Shown: in pieces, positions 54,956 through 64,000 of the stretch | Numbering within the stretch: the stretch's first letter is position 1 | Layout of the letters: the number at the start of each line of letters is the position of its first letter | IMG/VR virus record: IMGVR_UViG_3300025015_000010 | Span: 104,735 to 168,734 of that record | Length of the DNA: 64,000 bases | Reading direction: 5' to 3' (one strand) | DNA from: a virus | Program-made: the position numbers and the translations under genes | The notes under the pieces: model-generated | The model's input: only the letters and a program-made list of their open reading frames with translations | Databases searched by the model: none | Told to the model about the DNA's origin: nothing

Positions 54956-56160
54956 AGAGGTTAGTTAGAAAAACCAGGCATCTGTATCTGATAGGGCAGC
55001 GACACCAAAGATCGTCCCCAGCACGAAAAATATCACTAGAGTGATAGGTGCGAGTAGCCCTGCAACAATAGGTATGACTACTTGATGCCAGCGCTCTATG
55101 CCTATGTACACATGAGCACTTATTAGGCTTGCACTCGTTATTAGTAGGGCAATTACAATATAAGCCGTTAACATGTTATCCTCAAAAGTAGGATCGAAGA
55201 GAGACTTATGAAATTATATCTAGTAATTCTATGGCAAGTATAACTGATTGTGCGCGTTGATCTCCCTCAGATCGCTCATCTAGTACAGTCCTAGCCAGTA
55301 TTTCAGCCCTTTCTTTAATTTCACAGAGCTTCGTCATAAATTCTACGGATACTCCCATTTCTCCTTTACGAAGACTCACGACGAGCCCCCCCCCTGTCAG
55401 CCATATTCATACCCCCGGATCAATGATGTCAACTAAGGCTTTAAACTGTTCGATGTTACCAAGTTTAGGAAGTCCGTCATAGGTTCTAGGTACACTCCAC
55501 CCCAAGGCTGAGTCAAGGCGATCACAGAGAGAGTGTCTTGCAGCAATTAATGCACCATGCTTCTTAGTCATTTCAGCGTATTCGCGGTCTTTTTCCTGTA
55601 GATATTTTTCACATTCGGCCCACGGCATACGAATCAATGCAGTTGCAATTCGGTGTTCTCGGCAATCGTCATCGAGAACCGTCGTGTGCTTGTATATTTG
55701 AACAAAGACATCTCCACGAATGGGCGCTTGGGTAACAACAGCACGAGATACGTTCCATGTACCTGCTGAATTCCTTTCAGGAGTTGATTTCTTACCGTGC
55801 CATACCGCATAATCCTGGCCCACCTGAATATCACATGCACGCATTATTCACCTCCGTTGATGCTTATGATGTACTCTTTAGCCGCAGTAAAGGTCGAAAC
55901 TTGGTATTGATATTCTTGCCGTTGTGTCACAGGCAAATTAGTTGCATGGTCGGGTGTAATTAGCCACTTGCCGCGAAGGTAGTGTTCTACAGCATACCGT
56001 CTATCCGTATAAGAAACCCGGACCTCATACCAACCTTCGCGTCGTTTAATCGTTATGCTATTCATGTAGACATTATAGCATGTACCTTCTGGATGTCAAT
56101 AGGTAATTATGAGATTCTTTGGCCTGAGTTCACTGTTCTATACAAGAGTGAACTAGAATA

Positions 56161-56184
56161 GTTTAGGCACCTAGGTGCCTAAAC
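56161..56184. repeat. 24-bp perfect palindrome in a ~200-bp non-coding region
   Basis: gtttaggcacctaggtgcctaaac. Confidence 0.9.
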
Positions 56185-56309: not shown

Positions 56310-56699
56310 TTATAGGTCTTCTGGCGGATACTTACGTTTGCCTGCTAGGTAGTCTAGAACATCTGTTCGGCCACTGAAATTGGCTTTAATAGTCTTAGAT
56401 CCAGCTATTTTTGCAGCAGCTAACCGATGATGGCCATCTGCTAAGACAGGACCGTATACTGTGCCATTACACACCTCGCAAGCAACTTCTATTGGATCTA
56501 ATGCGCGACCTCGCCTCGACTCTCTAACAAAAAACTTGATGCGCCCTATATGCCAATCAAGGTCTTCCTCGTACTCGGTGTATTTGGATCGAGTAGTTGC
56601 ATAAGACAAACCATCTCTGACATCTTCCTCAGGCAAATCTAGTGAAGTAAATGGGTTGTAAAATTCTAGCAATCTGTCTACTAAGATAGTTCTACTCAT
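56310..56699 (-). CDS. ParB/Srx-like domain protein
   Basis: DPIEV...LADGHHRLAAA. Confidence 0.7.
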   Translation of the reverse strand: MSRTILVDRLLEFYNPFTSLDLPEEDVRDGLSYATTRSKYTEYEEDLDWHIGRIKFFVRESRRGRALDPIEVACEVCNGTVYGPVLADGHHRLAAAKIAGSKTIKANFSGRTDVLDYLAGKRKYPPEDL

Positions 56700-56740: not shown

Positions 56741-57338
56741 CGGGTCTTGATCTATTACTGTTATCTACTCCCCTAGCTACGCCATCCACCTCGTTCCATT
56801 CTCTGCCCAATTATTTGATCTATTACTATGTCTCGCTGGAGAAGGACTACTCGGCCAACGCCTTGGGTTCTATTCCCTACCTAGCTATTGATCTACTGCT
56901 ACCCCAGCATTCGTCCACTATGGGGGCTACCATGACACTATTCCATTCTCTGCCTAGCTCTTAATCTATTGCTACCATCGAACGCACCGTACTCTTCAAG
57001 CACGGTGGGATATTCCATTCTCTGCCTAGCTCTTAATCTATTGCTACGCCTGCTGTACGCGGCAGATGTGGTTGTCCGCCTCATTCCATTCTCTGCCTGA
57101 GTCTTGATCTATTACTGCGCAAGAAGACACCGGGGCGGATAATATTGCTGTAATCGTTCCATTCTCTGCCCGAGTCTTGATCTATTACTGCGTCAACGTG
57201 GGAGGGAAGAAATAATGGCACTCCATGCGTTCCATTCTCTGCCCGAGTCTTGATCTATTACTGCGGCCCCGGAACAAGCGATCAGTATCTGGCCGGTCGA
57301 GAGTTCCATTCTCTGCCCGAGTCTTGATCTATTACTGC
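56741..57338 (-). CRISPR. CRISPR array: 8 full repeats + 1 partial, 8 spacers
   Basis: 36-nt repeat, minus-strand consensus GCAGTAATAGATCAAGACTCGGGCAGAGAATGGAAC; plus-strand starts at 57303, 57229, 57156, 57083, 57012, 56940, 56867, 56793 (37 nt) and partial 56741; spacers 38, 37, 37, 35, 36, 37, 37, 31 nt; degeneration increases away from the cas gene. Confidence 0.97.
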
Positions 57339-59026
57339 CCCGCCTCAACTAAATCCTTTATTCCTAACTTGTTACATGGCTTCTTGCGAGGGCTTGGCTT
57401 TTCTATCTTAAGACTGCCGTTTAGTTCCTTGTCCCTTAGCTCTGGCAATCGCTCTGTAACGAACCTCTCGCATAGAATTCTTACAGAAGCTTCTGTCCAG
57501 TTGCATTGGTGGGCACACTTGGGGCAAATAAACAAGCCCTGTCGTCGAGATTCTTTATAATCTCGATGGTCCAGTTCAGTCAGATTTTTCTTGTAGCATA
57601 GAAATTTACATTCGGGACACGTGTCTGTAATAGCCATTCCAGATTGAATTAGTTCCCCACAACCTATAGCCTTTCCTTTGTAGTCCAAATCAAAAGCCAG
57701 TCGTCCATAGTCCCACGTAGATAATACCCGATTAGCTTGTCTTATTGCCCTTTGTGCCGGGGCACTCAGACCTTTGCAAAGATTTTTTCTGGCTTTCAAA
57801 AGCCAGGCTTTTCCCTCGCCAGGGTCGTGAAAAACCATTCTTGCTCCAGCGTCACCCGCCCAATCAACTAGCTGTTTAGACGTGGCATGAGCTACTGATC
57901 GCTCATCTGGAGCGGATGGACAACGCCGTCCAGCAGACTGAGCGTGCTTTGCTCTTTCTACCCACCGTTCGTGTGGGATCATATGTTCCATAGTTGGATA
58001 TCTGCGTACTTCAACAACCCCTTTACCCTTGTCCCACAATGCCGCTGTCGCATAAGGGTAAATATCCGGTACTACAAACAACAATCGATTCCACCCTAAA
58101 GTTGTTGGAGCATTAAATTTAAATGATATCCTTGCTTGCCAACGTCGTGGGGAGATTTCTTGAAGGCGTACATCGCCATAAAAAGCCCCAGAATCTAAGT
58201 ATTCTTTCGCATAATCCTGCTTCACAACAAGGGGTAAACGTAACCAACCCTTTGCATATTTTGTGATAGGGCCAGCTGCTTTATTGGTCTGTTGATAAGT
58301 TGACCAAGGTGTAACCACGCTATTGCCTTCATGGCCAGTCTGCACTGCAAGACACCAATGTCTCGCATTTTCAGGATCGCGTAGAATTCTGGCATGAATG
58401 GAGCCAGTAAATAACAGTTCTCTGTTGTGTTTTCGTGGGTTCGCTGCGGACGCCGCTTTTGCTAGTCTACTTCTTGCCCCGTTTAGTCGATGTCCTTGTA
58501 GACTAGTAGACTGGCTTATAGATTCTAGGGTATCCAACCATACTTTTTCAGCTTCAAGTAAACAAATACACGGCGAAGGGAAAGCAGGCGCACCTGTCAT
58601 TCGGCTACCAGATGGAATACGTTGCCCTTCAGCTTCAATTTTTTGTTGCCACTCCCACCGTTTCGTAGCTTGCTTATGGCCTGTTATGATTGAAGCGACT
58701 CGAAAAAACATGGACTCGGCCAGAGACGACGGTAAGTTTTCAGGCACAGGCGCAACAAGGCGTATAGCTGAGTAGATCGTTTGAGTTCCTCCAGGCATGT
58801 CAAGTAATTTTGCAGATTTTACCGTCCGTGCATTCTCAGGTCCAGTTCTGTAGTTAATTGGATCATCGATATGTTCTGATAGGTAATTCAAGGCATTCGT
58901 AATGCCTCGCTGCCATAAATCTGCCAAGTCTTCTAGCCCTCGACGAGCACGACGATCTACCCGAATACCAAAGGCTGGAGCGCGAACAAGGATATCACCG
59001 GCCTCAAAGTCTTTACGCTTTCCCAT
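57332..59026 (-). CDS. cas12: TnpB/Cas12-like type V effector (564 aa) with apparently inactivated RuvC
   Basis: Abuts the array; GGAGG SD before ATG 59026; C-terminal RuvC-like layout LLFVVPDI / AHATSKQLVDWA / MVFHDP / WDYGRLAFDLDYKG / TCPEC...FICPKC / NWTEASVRIL. Confidence 0.75.
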   Translation of the reverse strand: MGKRKDFEAGDILVRAPAFGIRVDRRARRGLEDLADLWQRGITNALNYLSEHIDDPINYRTGPENARTVKSAKLLDMPGGTQTIYSAIRLVAPVPENLPSSLAESMFFRVASIITGHKQATKRWEWQQKIEAEGQRIPSGSRMTGAPAFPSPCICLLEAEKVWLDTLESISQSTSLQGHRLNGARSRLAKAASAANPRKHNRELLFTGSIHARILRDPENARHWCLAVQTGHEGNSVVTPWSTYQQTNKAAGPITKYAKGWLRLPLVVKQDYAKEYLDSGAFYGDVRLQEISPRRWQARISFKFNAPTTLGWNRLLFVVPDIYPYATAALWDKGKGVVEVRRYPTMEHMIPHERWVERAKHAQSAGRRCPSAPDERSVAHATSKQLVDWAGDAGARMVFHDPGEGKAWLLKARKNLCKGLSAPAQRAIRQANRVLSTWDYGRLAFDLDYKGKAIGCGELIQSGMAITDTCPECKFLCYKKNLTELDHRDYKESRRQGLFICPKCAHQCNWTEASVRILCERFVTERLPELRDKELNGSLKIEKPSPRKKPCNKLGIKDLVEAGQ

Positions 59027-59028
59027 TC

Positions 59029-59547
59029 CTACCTCCGGTTCACCACTTGAAATGTCTCTCCACAATTAGGACAGTGAACCTTAAAACTATTAGTAACAAT
59101 CCGTTTTTCTAGTGGTTGCTCAGTTGGGGCAAGCGCTGGCAGAAATACATCATCCAGTTCTCTGGGCTTCATATCAATAGGCTTCACTTTTACATTTGCA
59201 TATTCCCCATTACTAGTGGGGCGTCGCACTTGGTACTCCTGGTCTAATACTGCGTCGCTTACGCCCCCGCGTAACATTCGGCCTACGGCTCTTAACGCAC
59301 GGTCAGGCGAGCCCCAGGCGAGAGATGCAAACCGAGGATTAGCCGCGAGAGAGATAAGACGATCTGCACGAGATCTAGTTAAGCCAATTTCCTTGAGAAA
59401 ACGGTCATAAATTGGCAGAACTTGCTGTTGCACTCGACCCAGTAACTTCCCATATGCAATAAGATCCGTTGTGAGATTTACATTCAATGTTTGCCATGCG
59501 GCTAATGCCTCTTCTAAACTGAGATTACTTTCTTTGACTGTGCTCAT
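59029..59547 (-). CDS. DUF3102-like helical/HTH protein with C-terminal CxxC knuckle, coupled to the cas12-like gene
   Basis: LIAYGKLL..V......YDRFLKEIGLTRSRADRLISLA; VHCPNCGETF; stop 2 nt before the next ATG. Confidence 0.6.
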   Translation of the reverse strand: MSTVKESNLSLEEALAAWQTLNVNLTTDLIAYGKLLGRVQQQVLPIYDRFLKEIGLTRSRADRLISLAANPRFASLAWGSPDRALRAVGRMLRGGVSDAVLDQEYQVRRPTSNGEYANVKVKPIDMKPRELDDVFLPALAPTEQPLEKRIVTNSFKVHCPNCGETFQVVNRR

Positions 59548-59582: not shown

Positions 59583-59745
59583 ATAACTGGCCCGGAAAAC
59601 TGCTTGCTCGTGACACTGTCTCGGCAGCGAGCATAGATACGGGTCGTGAGTGCCGTTATCCGCTGAGCGTAACCAGATCGGTCCAGCGGCACCCCGGCTC
59701 ACGCGGTGGAACGCCGCGCATTTTTGTTCTTTCCGGGCCAGTTAT
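59583..59745 (-). ncRNA. 163-nt structured RNA (candidate tracr/scaffold RNA)
   Basis: 16-bp perfect closing stem 59583-59598/59730-59745; internal stems tgctcg/cgagca, gtgag/ctcac, ccgctg/cagcgg, cgcgg/ccgcg; starts at the predicted TSS. Confidence 0.65.
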
Positions 59746-59754
59746 CTGCTAACT

Positions 59755-59783
59755 AGCATACACCTACCAAACAACAAAGTCAA
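59755..59783 (-). promoter_or_regulatory. sigma70-like promoter of the ncRNA-DUF3102-cas12-array unit
   Basis: TTGACT-N17-TATGCT. Confidence 0.8.
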
Positions 59784-60796
59784 CAACTTTCTTTTGACAA
59801 AATCCAACCAGCTTTTATCATATCAGCCAACACGGCATAACAGACGTAAGCCCGGCCTGTACGAGACAGAGCATGAAACCTGTAATCAGTCACTAAAGCA
59901 TCATACATATCTCGCTGACTTTCAGGCAGGCTGTCTCTGGCCGCTTGAAACTTTGATGCCTTCTGTACAACTGGCTCGACTTCAAATGTCTTCACAGTCT
60001 TGGGCTCTTTTTGATGACTTATCCTTACTTCTGGAAAATACTTATACTTTTTTCTGAGTTTTAGTGGCGGAATAACTATGCCTGTCTTGATACAGTAGCT
60101 CCGTAAACGTGCGACCGACTCTCCAACCTCTCTGGCCACGTGGGCGACGGGCTTATTCCAGAGTAAATCTGTTAGTACCTCTCTATCTGGCCAGGCGCCC
60201 TCCTCCAAAGTTGTCAGCCATCGTGTTTGGCGCGATGCTATAGGAATATCCGAGGTGTGACAGTAACTTTTCAAGGTATTTATTGATATGCCGAGAGACT
60301 TTGCTACGTGCTTGGGCGACCGCTCTTGAAGCATCTTTGTCAGAGTAGACGCCTCGGGCCATTCTATTTTTACCCTGTTCCAGTGCTCAATACCAGCTAG
60401 CGTTATTCGCTTTTCGCTCTTAGAATTAGGCGAGGCGACCTTGGGCTTCTTGTCTCGTTTCTTCGCGCTTGGCTTACGCTCTTGTTCAACCTTTCTTGCA
60501 TAGGGCGTGGCTAGAACCAAGTTACCAATATCGATATTTGTCTTATTACGGTCTATATAGCTGACGTTCTCGTCTCTACTCAAATACCTGCCTATGTCAT
60601 TTTCCATCACAAGTACGGCCCAGTAAACCATACCAGAGTTATCAAGGGCTCGCGGATGTTCTGGATAATATGCCGCTATCGAGCCCTTAAATTTTTCAGG
60701 CTTTAACTTCGACAAGTCATGTACAGTTAGGTCGGTTTCGCTGACATACTCCCCGGAATAAATTCCGGGGCTTGCGGTCGCTGGTCCCATCGTCAT
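59780..60796 (-). CDS. Degenerate HNH-like N-terminus plus repeated HTH motifs
   Basis: HPRA..GMVY..VLVME..IGRYL...ENV.YIDRNK.N...NL; VAKSLGISINTL; VAREVGES; true start uncertain. Confidence 0.55.
   Translation of the reverse strand: MTMGPATASPGIYSGEYVSETDLTVHDLSKLKPEKFKGSIAAYYPEHPRALDNSGMVYWAVLVMENDIGRYLSRDENVSYIDRNKTNIDIGNLVLATPYARKVEQERKPSAKKRDKKPKVASPNSKSEKRITLAGIEHWNRVKIEWPEASTLTKMLQERSPKHVAKSLGISINTLKSYCHTSDIPIASRQTRWLTTLEEGAWPDREVLTDLLWNKPVAHVAREVGESVARLRSYCIKTGIVIPPLKLRKKYKYFPEVRISHQKEPKTVKTFEVEPVVQKASKFQAARDSLPESQRDMYDALVTDYRFHALSRTGRAYVCYAVLADMIKAGWILSKESC
60742..60795 (-). mobile_element. IS200/IS605-type right-end remnant
   Basis: CAAGCCCCGGAATTTATTCCGGGGAGTATGTCA: hairpin followed by GTCA; 30-nt arm identical to the 49221 palindrome. 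Confidence 0.6.
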
Positions 60797-60803
60797 CTAC
60801 ACC

Positions 60804-63725
60804 TCAAACATAAGGGTCATTGGCCGTGTTATTTCTACGTTGCCAGTCGTTTCGTTCGTTCACTATCCGCTCATCTCGCTTTAAAGCTGCCTTGGCTAGG
60901 GCCGTACTTGCAGACGGGTCGGAAATAATGTCTGCTAAGAACGAATTCAAAAGATTGATTCTTAAGGTGTAATAGTCGGAATCATCCATAAACTCTTACC
61001 TTGTACGGGTGCAGCAGCCCTAATAATATTGGCCCAAATGTGCCTCCAGTCGGGTCCATCTCGCCTTTCAGTGTTCCAGACGTACTAACACCGTAAAAAC
61101 TGGCCATAATGCTGTCTTCAGGAAAATTAATTAGTAGCTCAACGTCTGCAAAATTCCAATGCAAGTCGATACTTCCATCTGAGCAGGGACCAATTTTGGG
61201 TATACGCGGCACTACCTTCAGATCATTCAAAGCTACACTGTTAAGACTTCTTAAAAACGCGATTGCTCTGTTCCAAGTTACTTGTTCAACTGACTTAAAA
61301 TCTTCTACAGCGATAGTCAATATCCTCTTGGACCTTTCGATGACATCTTCTAAGTCATTTGTTATATGACCGCAGCCCAAGCAGCCTATTCCTGACAAAG
61401 AAAAGTATGTGTCTGTTGATTGGCACTTCAAGCACGGCCCGCTAGTATAGGATGGATTGACCCTAGGCGGTCTCGAATAATGTTCGTGGAAAAATCCCAT
61501 ACCCATATTAAGTTTTACCTTTCTTTCGTCGAGGCTTTATACCCGAAAGTAAGAGTTTCGCCCGCCTTATCAGCCGCTTCTGCCAACTTACCGAGGTCTA
61601 TGTCAGTAAACAGTCCGACTGGAGCGCTGACTAGTGTTTGGCCATTAGACATTCTAGATATTGAAGCCGATATAGGAACGCCATGCAAGATGTCTGAAAT
61701 ATAGCCGCATGAGGGCGGACCCGGCTGCCATGGATCACGATTTAACTCTTGTCGCAAAGGCCAAAACCAAAGTAGCATTAGCTTGTCTCCTTACTAAAGA
61801 TCGAATCAAACTTTACTTTCCAACGTTCTTTAAACTCAAGTCCATAGCACTCAAATATGGCCTCTTCCAATCTGGACCGAACTGTTTTAGGCTTCCAGCC
61901 AGCAGTTAAGGCATCTGAAACAAAGTGCATCCAAGACGGCATTAGGCCATGTTTCTCGCACTGAATGAATAAATCTGGCAAAGGCAATCCACAGGTATCA
62001 TACATTCTGAACACACCCGCTATGACCGTTTTGCCGTCTTCGGTCTTGCCAATTATTTTGAATTTGGGTTCGGCCATTTTAATCGCTAACAGTAGGAGCT
62101 AGATGCTTCTTGATAACCCTGACAGCGCTGTCTACTGTATCGGCCTTGCCTATAAGAGCGTGGGTATCGTCGTGTCCCGGTATGTCCGCTCCTGTGAACA
62201 GACTAATATCGTAAAGATACAAGTCTTCGGCACTTTTTACACTCCATACGATGTAATTGTCCAAGTTTTCTGGCTCGATAGTTACGATGATCTCACCGAA
62301 ACGCTTGTTGTAGGTTATCTGGTACCCTTTGCCCAATGAATCGTGCAGCGCGACAAGAGTCTGTTGGATATTCTTACTACTAGGCTTGTCTATCATACTG
62401 GCTCTGTGCCCTCCAACCAACGAACCTTCTTTCCATTACGTCTTGCATAAGCGACTTCGTTTTTCGTACTGTCCCCAAGGTAGCCTCCGACGTTCAACAC
62501 TAAGATTTCGTCCGCCAAGTCAATCTTACGCAGATGAAGCTGGTCTAACTCACCTCCAGTCGGTTTGTCATCAGAACGAGCGCCGCTGTGAGAAAGGACA
62601 ATACGGCCAGCCAGTGTTTCGCTTAAGTATGTCGCCCGCTCTGTGTATCTATAGTCTTGCGATAGGTCTCCAATGCTTGTTTTAATCTTTTGCCTTCTGT
62701 ACTGTTACCAACGGCTGAGCACACAAAAATATCCGCTGCCTCTGAGAGCCTGTTTGCAGCTACTCCACGTGCCTCGTAGAAGTCCCTAATCGAGATATAG
62801 GCCGAAACGGCTTCATGAATCTCATCAATTGTTCCGTGCATGATAGCCTTGCACAGAACTACTTCGCGGTCTCGTAATTTAGGCCGCGGATGAGAATGAT
62901 CAATCATAGCTCTCGGTTATTTTCATAATAAGGGTCACGGACGATGTAATCTCTGTGTTCTCTATTTTTGCGGACACCTGTCTCATCTCTACTCCAGACA
63001 ACTTAAATGAGCCTGGTCTACTCTGCAAACAAGCCGACACAGGTAGACTTAGTACAAACTTACCTTCAGCTAAATTAGCCAATATGTCTATGGGAGTATC
63101 CGGTAAAGCCACAACTTGAAATCCCTCTAGCTTGTATTGACCAGACATTAAGAAACGTTGACCCGTTAAGCCATCACAAAGATTATCCCAGAAACTGGTG
63201 GCAAAGAAATCTGTACCAGGCACCTGAGTGTCGTAAAAATACTGCTGAGTTTCTAGCAAGCTGTCTCCGGTTTTTTCAATCCTCGAACTATTCGGCATAG
63301 GCCGAAGCTATTCTAGCCTCAGTTTTCTTAATACGGAGAATGATATCATTTGTATAATCGGCTGGCCTTTCCCCGTATTGCCCGAAACCGAGTTCCTTCA
63401 TGCGATTGTGTTGCCAGCTAGAAACCAACCGATCCATCTGCTCCCTGCCATCTCCACGAATCCGAGTTACTGGCACTGAATCGCCCATCTTCAGTGCTGG
63501 CTTGCCAAAGCATGTGGTTTCTTCAACATCTGGCAAAGGGTAAGCAGATACTTCAGCCCACGTATTTAAGGATTTGCGGACCTTGGCCAGTTCGTTTTCC
63601 AGCCGTCGCAGTGTCCTTGTAGAGTTGAGCACAGAAAGCGCCCGCTTTGCTAAAGGTAACTCAGCGTCCGATTCTTTGATGCTCCCGCCGTTAACGGCGG
63701 GATTCTGGTTATCTAACTCGCGCAT
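60804..63725 (-). other. Block of hypothetical ORFs (60804-60989, 60982-61506, 61515-61778, 61778-62077, 62079-~62396, 62623-62907, 62900-63298, 63288-63725)
   Basis: Co-oriented and coupled; 61778-62077 has VFRMYDTCGLP, resembling an AlaRS-like helical fragment. Confidence 0.6.
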
Positions 63726-64000
63726 AGCGCTCGTTCCTTCCCAGCATAGGGTCCACCAATATGCCCCAACGATACCACACTGAGGATATCGCTACGGGTG
63801 CCACTCACTACCTTGGCACCGCGTCTTCCAATGTTAAATGCCGCGTTTGCGTCGCGATGCTCCTTGTGATTGCATCTCGAACACAGGTACTTTTTACCCT
63901 TTGGTTTGTGGATCTTCCCGCACTTACAACATTCTTGACTCGTATACGCTGGGTCAACGAATATGACGGGTACGCCGCGCAAGGCAGCTTTGTACATAAT
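63713..64000 (-). CDS. tnpB: TnpB (IS200/IS605 RNA-guided nuclease), C-terminal part; gene runs off the window
   Basis: YKA...GVPVIFVDPAYTSQECCKCG...YLCSRCNHKEHRDANAAFNI with intact RuvC-III Asp. Confidence 0.9.
   Translation of the reverse strand: MMYKAALRGVPVIFVDPAYTSQECCKCGKIHKPKGKKYLCSRCNHKEHRDANAAFNIGRRGAKVVSGTRSDILSVVSLGHIGGPYAGKERALCAS

Follow-up and report, generated by a model that had tools for sequence, protein, structure and literature searches.

We describe here a CRISPR locus that is carried by a phage and centered on a gene for a Cas12/TnpB-like effector, P0002, whose RuvC catalytic triad aligns as D-H-T in place of the canonical D-E-D. The DNA analyzed (the window) makes up the final 64 kb of a linear 168.7-kb IMG/VR virus record (IMGVR_UViG_3300025015_000010, positions 104,735 to 168,734), for which CheckV estimates a completeness of 77%. 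The same phage was recovered repeatedly in groundwater metagenome assemblies, and in public sequencing data low-share DNA runs cover this same phage thinly and show no variants, while no RNA run containing it was listed. Coordinates are those of the window unless another sequence is named. Three features form the core of the locus:

57332..59026, minus strand, stop codon included: gene for the Cas12/TnpB-like effector P0002 (564 residues), identified by homology, fold and gene callers.
56744..57338, minus strand: CRISPR array with a period of 71-74 nt, made up of eight 36-37-nt repeats, a partial ninth of 17 nt and eight 32-38-nt spacers.
59029..59547, minus strand: gene whose stop codon lies 2 nt before the effector ATG and which encodes a helical protein of 172 residues carrying a CxxC zinc ribbon at the C terminus.

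The effector lies in a minus-strand open reading frame (ORF) at 57332-59065, which contains all of the peptide segments quoted in an earlier annotation of this DNA (the original prediction). Translation probably begins at the ATG at 59026, the start chosen by the gene callers; GGAGG precedes it, and the resulting protein has 564 residues. The protein has an N-terminal helical half, a WED-like β region (residues ~215-305), a RuvC domain in two segments (~310-465 and 507-525) with a zinc-finger/TNB insert (468-506), and a Lys-rich tail (526-564).

The array has no separate leader; its first repeat begins inside the last codons and stop of the effector gene (GGG CAG TAA). The three repeats closest to the gene are identical. 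Farther out they have 2-11 changes and a 1-nt insertion, and decay grows the farther a repeat lies from the gene. In 100 shuffles the repeat core was never matched, and the repeat forms no hairpin. Spacer GC content is 49-66%, compared with 44% for the phage. No spacer matches the phage itself with up to nine mismatches allowed, 22-25-mers from spacers S1-S5 have no exact match in viral contigs, and those from S1 have none in metagenome contigs. The array is identical in all samples except for one metagenome variant (L005), in which a 21-nt deletion spans the junction of repeat 7 and spacer 7, taking away the end of the former and the beginning of the latter. Neither cas1 nor cas2 was found in the 168.7-kb record. 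Because the array adjoins the ORF at its stop codon and cas1 and cas2 are absent from the record, we regard the ORF as encoding the effector of a phage CRISPR locus that is type V-like and minimal. Assignment as a transposon TnpB was considered and rejected, as the 3′ end of the gene enters a regular repeat-spacer array and there is no transposase in the neighboring gene tables.

Kinship and fold of the effector

The effector has a single relative, P0003, a protein of 532 residues with 38% identity that was found by a phmmer scan of 1.8 billion cluster representatives; the family thus has two members among ~15 billion predicted proteins. P0003 is encoded on an unrelated 7.4-kb contig (L009). 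No further relatives were found by k-mer search with either P0002 or the profile of the pair, by tblastn of both proteins against GenBank phages, or by pattern scans of viral, metagenome and genome contigs. Look-ups of both proteins in 90% clusters returned singletons only, and megablast of 14 kb against phages gave no match.

Kinship with TnpB and Cas12 is seen when profiles are compared. A profile of P0002 and P0003 aligned by hhalign with 50 TnpBs, these being relatives of the phage's own TnpB, gives a probability of 93.5% and an E value of 2.4e-7 over 250 columns. An AlphaFold2 (AF2) model made from an alignment of P0002, P0003 and TnpB has pLDDT (predicted local distance difference test) values of 80-94 across residues 310-530; this alignment held TnpB rows, so the model shows the fold and is not independent evidence of geometry. 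A single-sequence AF2 model (pLDDT 35) was discarded. The best structural matches are to AsCas12f (PDB 8j3r and 7wju), with a Foldseek E value of 8e-9 for the AF2 model and a VIA Z score of 13.3, and the ESM Atlas's own model of P0002 matches TnpB/Cas12f-TNB clusters with template modeling (TM) scores of 0.59-0.64. VIA Z scores of ~12-13 are tied among Cas12f, Cas12k, Cas12e (CasX) and Cas12g, with matches over residues ~300-530, whereas Cas12m scores 11.5 against ~13 for Cas12f and Cas12k. P0002 has the TnpB/Cas12f fold, and its homology to TnpB/Cas12 is better than chance; the type V hallmark, a C-terminal split RuvC (RNase H fold) with a TNB/zinc-finger insert, is present.

Searches against family models give much fainter signals, and the TnpB family-model cut-offs are reached by neither member. 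The Pfam model Cas12f1-like_TNB is barely detectable in a single-sequence search (E 0.17), with TNB scores for the two family members of 12.5 and 17.7 bits relative to a cut-off of 26.3, and a PHROGs search with the effector gave no match. P0003 alone has weak NCBIfam matches (E 0.007-0.008) that are far under the cut-offs, with 15.6 bits for guided_TnpB (cut-off 100) and 15 bits for Cas12f2 (cut-off 450); P0002 matches neither model. In a profile search of the PDB the best sequence match is to Cas12g (E 0.012), a weak match that covers the zinc-finger/RuvC-III part only, and no Cas12m chains are seen at E <= 10.

The phage also carries at least four canonical TnpBs of different subfamilies, with scores of 55-81 bits. 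These are located at 68680-68877, 83518-83706 and 89365-89568 of the full record (G000:C1) and at 63713-64000 of the window, and their RuvC-III motifs are intact (HADFNAAINI, HSDVNAALNH, DRDDQAAYNL and HRDANAAFNI); the last is that of the window's own TnpB, as the original prediction reported. A 491-residue ORF near G000:48.5 kb has a sub-threshold TNB match.

RuvC catalytic positions and zinc finger

The residues that bear on catalysis are located as follows, in order along the protein:

58064..58066, minus strand: Asp321, the RuvC-I aspartate, retained (alignment and predicted β1).
57824..57829, minus strand: His400-Asp401 of the HDPG motif, RuvC-II, at the end of β4 (alignments); His400 is at 57827-57829.
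57623..57625, minus strand: Asp468, just before the first zinc-finger cysteine, conserved in both members and replacing the invariant Ser of the TnpB 'TSQ' motif.
57515..57619, minus strand: C4 zinc finger/TNB insert, from CPEC (C470, C473) to CPKC (C501, C504), with 4/4 cysteines invariant in both members.
57491..57496, minus strand: Thr511-Glu512, RuvC-III, where the last RuvC helix (510-535) makes its first turn (alignments); Thr511 is at 57494-57496.

It had been proposed from the sequence that the zinc finger is kept while all three RuvC catalytic positions are substituted. The zinc finger is indeed intact, and the substitutions at RuvC-II and RuvC-III stand, but a loss at three sites is incorrect because the RuvC-I Asp is retained; the same proposal had allowed that the Asp of its PDI segment might be catalytic, and this residue, Asp321, corresponds to the RuvC-I Asp.

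At RuvC-I, Asp321 is aligned by MAFFT opposite the catalytic Asp, a position at which Asp is invariant in all 52 sequences. In the AF2 model β1 spans residues 314-320 with Asp321 immediately after it, followed by β2 (326-332) and β3 (336-343), an order that matches TnpB strand for strand and places Asp321 at the D of the canonical h-h-x-h-D. The surrounding motif is V-x-x-D-(I/V)-Y-P-Y-x-T-A-A-L. An alternative local placement by hhalign, with Asn313 opposite the catalytic Asp, was rejected; it leaves no β1 and needs a nine-residue insertion.

At RuvC-II, His400 is opposite the catalytic Glu in the hhalign alignment, in the MAFFT alignment and in an L-INS-i alignment with four different phage TnpBs, and P0003 carries the same HDPG. 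The adjacent Asp401 lies opposite the D/N of the canonical EDL/ENL motif, and by this correspondence it is an ordinary, ancestral residue of the motif and not a new compensating one.

At RuvC-III, the same three alignments place Thr511 opposite the catalytic Asp, and the PDB profile match places it opposite D745 of Cas12g. Where P0002 has Thr511-Glu512, P0003 has Ala-Asp, so that the residue after the lost Asp is acidic in both; a Glu/Asp difference between members at 512 is unusual for a precisely placed catalytic residue. The other RuvC-III residues (R, N, AA, N) are replaced in both members, including those corresponding to R327 and N330, which are conserved in the TnpB comparators, and to the nearly invariant A331. 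The two proteins are 53-73% identical in the RuvC core but 20-33% identical in the stretch 466-525, and this poor conservation argues against a precisely held third catalytic motif.

Taken from these alignments, the triad is D-H-T in P0002 and D-H-A in P0003, instead of the canonical D-E-D; the D, E and D of the TnpB comparators align with the AsCas12f motifs GIDLG, MEDL and NADYNAA. Outside the triad, the beginning of helix α1 contains Glu347, His348, His352 and Glu353, all invariant in both members, and Asp468 is located close to β5.

The Cas12g match raises the question of an RNA-only role, in which the altered pocket matures pre-crRNA (the precursor of CRISPR RNA, crRNA) or cuts RNA targets like Cas12g and leaves DNA uncut. 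RNA-targeting Cas12g is the best sequence match among solved structures, Cas12c and Cas12j process pre-crRNA in the RuvC site (PMC10442227), and the CRISPR repeat has no hairpin of its own. We nonetheless consider such a role improbable, as the Cas12g match is weak and confined to one part of the protein, the structural scores for Cas12g are tied with those for three other Cas12s, Cas12g, Cas12c and Cas12j all act with intact DED triads, and protospacer searches found no target from which a strand bias could be read.

Upstream partner gene, structured elements and neighboring features

A homologue of the 172-residue zinc-ribbon protein (33% identity, E 6e-32) is encoded upstream of P0003 (L009:369-947), where two small ORFs lie between the zinc-ribbon gene and the effector. 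It is the only neighbor conserved at both effector loci, and this fits a multi-part system. The protein belongs to no Pfam family and has a weak language-model lead to phage DUF3102-like clusters; prediction of its complex with the effector gave no verdict (score 0.00). There is no array with P0003 within its 7.4-kb contig, and examination of the contig end as a repeat remnant gave no signal above controls.

Two further elements lie upstream of the zinc-ribbon gene:

59583..59745, strand ambiguous: GC-rich structured element with a perfect 16-bp closing stem (minimum free energy z -4.5; 0/200 shuffles fold as well).
59834..59880, minus strand, the same as the array: candidate anti-repeat, the best repeat duplex outside the array in the 168.7-kb record.

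The first element has a sigma-70-like site upstream on the minus strand and a terminator-like hairpin on the plus strand at 59702-59718, so that it could be transcribed from either strand. The P0003 contig has a GC-rich element of its own (L009:122-352), with a terminal stem of ~26 bp and a z of -5.6, located behind a sigma-70-like site. The elements thus head both operons, and MAFFT found no convincing sequence homology between the two. The 59583-59745 element may be a scaffold or trans-activating CRISPR RNA (tracrRNA), or a 5′ leader; its duplex with the repeat is weak (-25.3 kcal/mol). The candidate anti-repeat gives a duplex of -31.9 kcal/mol compared with a genome mean of -14.2 (standard deviation 3.9); its partner is the repeat's conserved 3′ part, and several of the pairs are G:U. 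It is 2.5 kb away, inside the 3′ end of a 338-residue ORF, and the 205 nt around it fold unusually well (z -3.4). Rfam returned nothing meaningful at the locus.

The 338-residue ORF (59780-60796, minus strand) is upstream of the operon and has weak helix-turn-helix-type matches (RWP-RK, E 2.5e-4, and HTH_17) as well as a weak HNH_3 match; its product may be a regulator of the locus. Past the array, a 129-residue ORF (56310-56699, minus strand) has a DGHHR-type motif reminiscent of ParB/sulfiredoxin-like domains and a weak Pfam match to DUF1015 (E 0.007). Beyond it there is a perfect sigma-70 consensus on the minus strand at 56072-56099 (TTGACA, 16 nt, TG-TATAAT; 12/12) upstream of a 73-residue ORF (55844-56065), and two back-to-back perfect or near-perfect palindromes (56127-56184) precede this site.

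The state of the locus is relevant to whether it is a decaying relic without function. The array is unchanged among samples carrying the phage, its distal repeats are degenerate, and adaptation genes were not found in the record. Set against this are a reading frame that is intact in two lineages only 38% identical and contains long invariant blocks, a conserved upstream partner gene, three identical first repeats, and spacers that are foreign in composition, and we regard a relic as very unlikely.

Function of the altered pocket

In a canonical two-metal site the Glu and the second Asp help to hold both metal ions (PMC10442227), and the replacements at His400 and Thr511, as aligned, would remove canonical ligands of both. 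Given these two losses and an eroded RuvC-III motif, the most likely consequence is that two-metal cleavage of DNA in the classic manner is disabled or much weakened. A precedent is available in Cas12m2: its HDD triad holds only one Mg and is unable to cut double-stranded DNA, the pocket instead gripping the non-target strand (PMC10442227). A His plus a shorter Asp in that triad lead to loss of metal B, with cleavage abolished (PMC10442227).

The original prediction had argued from a three-site loss that the protein binds without cutting. The premise was wrong in that form, but the two losses are real and common to P0003, and since the Cas12m2 precedent is solved, binding without cutting is the single most likely reading. 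We therefore tentatively favor, at a little under an even chance, a crRNA-guided binder in which the canonical DNase is disabled. The effector gene, whose stop codon lies within the first repeat, is probably transcribed together with the array. On the favored model the crRNA-guided protein would bind and block transcription or replication of a competitor element or a host target, the conserved pocket (Asp321, His400 and Asp401) holding the displaced strand as in Cas12m2. The analysis establishes the fold, the array and which residues occupy the three positions in P0002 and in its one homologue; we infer the loss of cleavage, interference through binding, and any role of the zinc-ribbon protein or of structured RNA.

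Several observations weigh against a binder. Asp321 is retained; both members keep His400-Asp401, Asp468 and an acidic residue at 512, which could together make up a rewired metal site; conservation within the effector peaks in the RuvC core, a peak that would also fit retained catalysis, with the many conserved Arg in the core fitting nucleic-acid binding equally well; and the family is known from two sequences only. Clades with a rearranged RuvC-II or RuvC-III have also been described and predicted to be active (PMC10691335).

The same residues can accordingly be assembled into a rewired active nuclease, in which an RNase H-type site is rebuilt from Asp321 plus Asp401 and/or Asp468 and Glu512 (Asp in P0003), His400 perhaps serves as a metal ligand or general base, and targets are cleaved. 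We view this as a serious possibility, if short of probable. An acidic residue lies one position after each of the lost catalytic residues, and these and the Asp468 that replaces the TSQ Ser are shared by both proteins, as are the invariant Asp321, the invariant Glu347, His348, His352 and Glu353, and a core with identity well above the 38% seen overall. Moreover, there are TnpB/Cas12 clades judged active in which a loop near β5 supplies the Glu missing from RuvC-II, or in which RuvC-III has a His (PMC10691335). Against a rewired site, two motifs are altered simultaneously; Asp401 is the normal residue of the EDL motif, position 512 differs between the two members within a poorly conserved RuvC-III block, and in the Cas12m2 precedent the outcome was loss of both metal B and cleavage.

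Comparison with described systems places the effector near several of them. It resembles Cas12m2 in being a compact single effector (564 residues versus 596) with a 36-nt repeat, a zinc-finger insert in RuvC, a His within the triad and loss of the canonical DED, and interference by binding is established for Cas12m2 (PMC10442227). It differs in that Cas12m2 has His at RuvC-I and Asp at II and III, and Cas12m patterns are HDD, HEK and HQK rather than D-H-T/A. There is also no sequence match to Cas12m in the PDB profile search and a lower Z (11.5 versus ~13 for other Cas12s), the Cas12m2 zinc finger is HCCC and not C4, and here the repeat is unstructured and the host of the system is a phage.

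Cas12f/Cas14 proteins provide the best structural matches, belong to a similar size class, have no REC insertion between RuvC-I and RuvC-II, and have a C4 zinc finger; a requirement for a tracrRNA would fit with the repeat being unstructured. By contrast, sequence scores are far below the family cut-offs and the Cas12f DED triad is intact. The rearranged or inactivated TnpB clades (RIIr, RIIIr and Ri; Altae-Tran et al. 2023) share a TnpB-derived scaffold with altered RuvC-II and/or RuvC-III. Some of these clades are virus-specific, CRISPR association arose ~50 times independently, and in the cases described in the text the changes affect either one motif (Asp to His, or Glu to Gly compensated by another Glu) or all three (PMC10691335), whereas here II and III are changed, I is kept, and the His is at II.

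Cas12k and the TldR or sigma-associated dCas12f proteins bind under RNA guidance, no longer have RuvC catalysis and depend on a conserved partner protein, and Cas12k ties for the top structural score (Z ~13). In the phage effector, unlike in these, the RuvC-III helix and zinc finger are present and not truncated, and a normal array is attached. No Tn7-like genes (tnsB, tnsC or tniQ) are recorded by Pfam family in the gene tables within ~10 kb, and the locus gene tables contain neither a sigma factor nor a flagellin/ABC operon. The CasΦ (Cas12j) and Casλ proteins of huge phages are likewise compact type V effectors with mini-arrays and no cas1/cas2, but they have 700-800 residues and intact DED triads, the Z scores for Cas12j are weaker (11.2-11.7), and there is no sequence match.

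Non-canonical or inactivated RuvC sites are thus already well known, from Cas12m, Cas12k, Cas12c, TldR-type proteins and the RIIr/RIIIr clades, and Cas12c reportedly silences without DNA cleavage (bioRxiv 10.1101/2021.12.06.471469). What is new is the D-H-T/A pattern, the rarity of the family, the phage setting with an array fused to the stop codon, and the conserved partner. The family has probably not been studied previously. A bolder proposal, which we think doubtful in its entirety, is that P0002 founds an undescribed, phage-restricted type V subtype, in which the D-H-(T/A) pocket, the zinc-ribbon partner, a long structured RNA heading the operon and the leaderless stop-fused array act jointly as an RNA-guided DNA-binding (silencing) machine; alternatively, the pocket would be a new His-containing catalytic RuvC arrangement.

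Compact repressors, base editors and RNA-guided transposition take naturally DNase-free Cas12s (Cas12m, Cas12c and Cas12k) as their starting points, and the effector described here could test which RuvC ligands are dispensable. If the favored reading is true, a 564-residue phage binder would represent another independent route from TnpB to a binder, with a His at RuvC-II and no RuvC-III carboxylate. The partner gene and the leaderless, stop-fused array bear on how phage CRISPR systems exist without adaptation genes.

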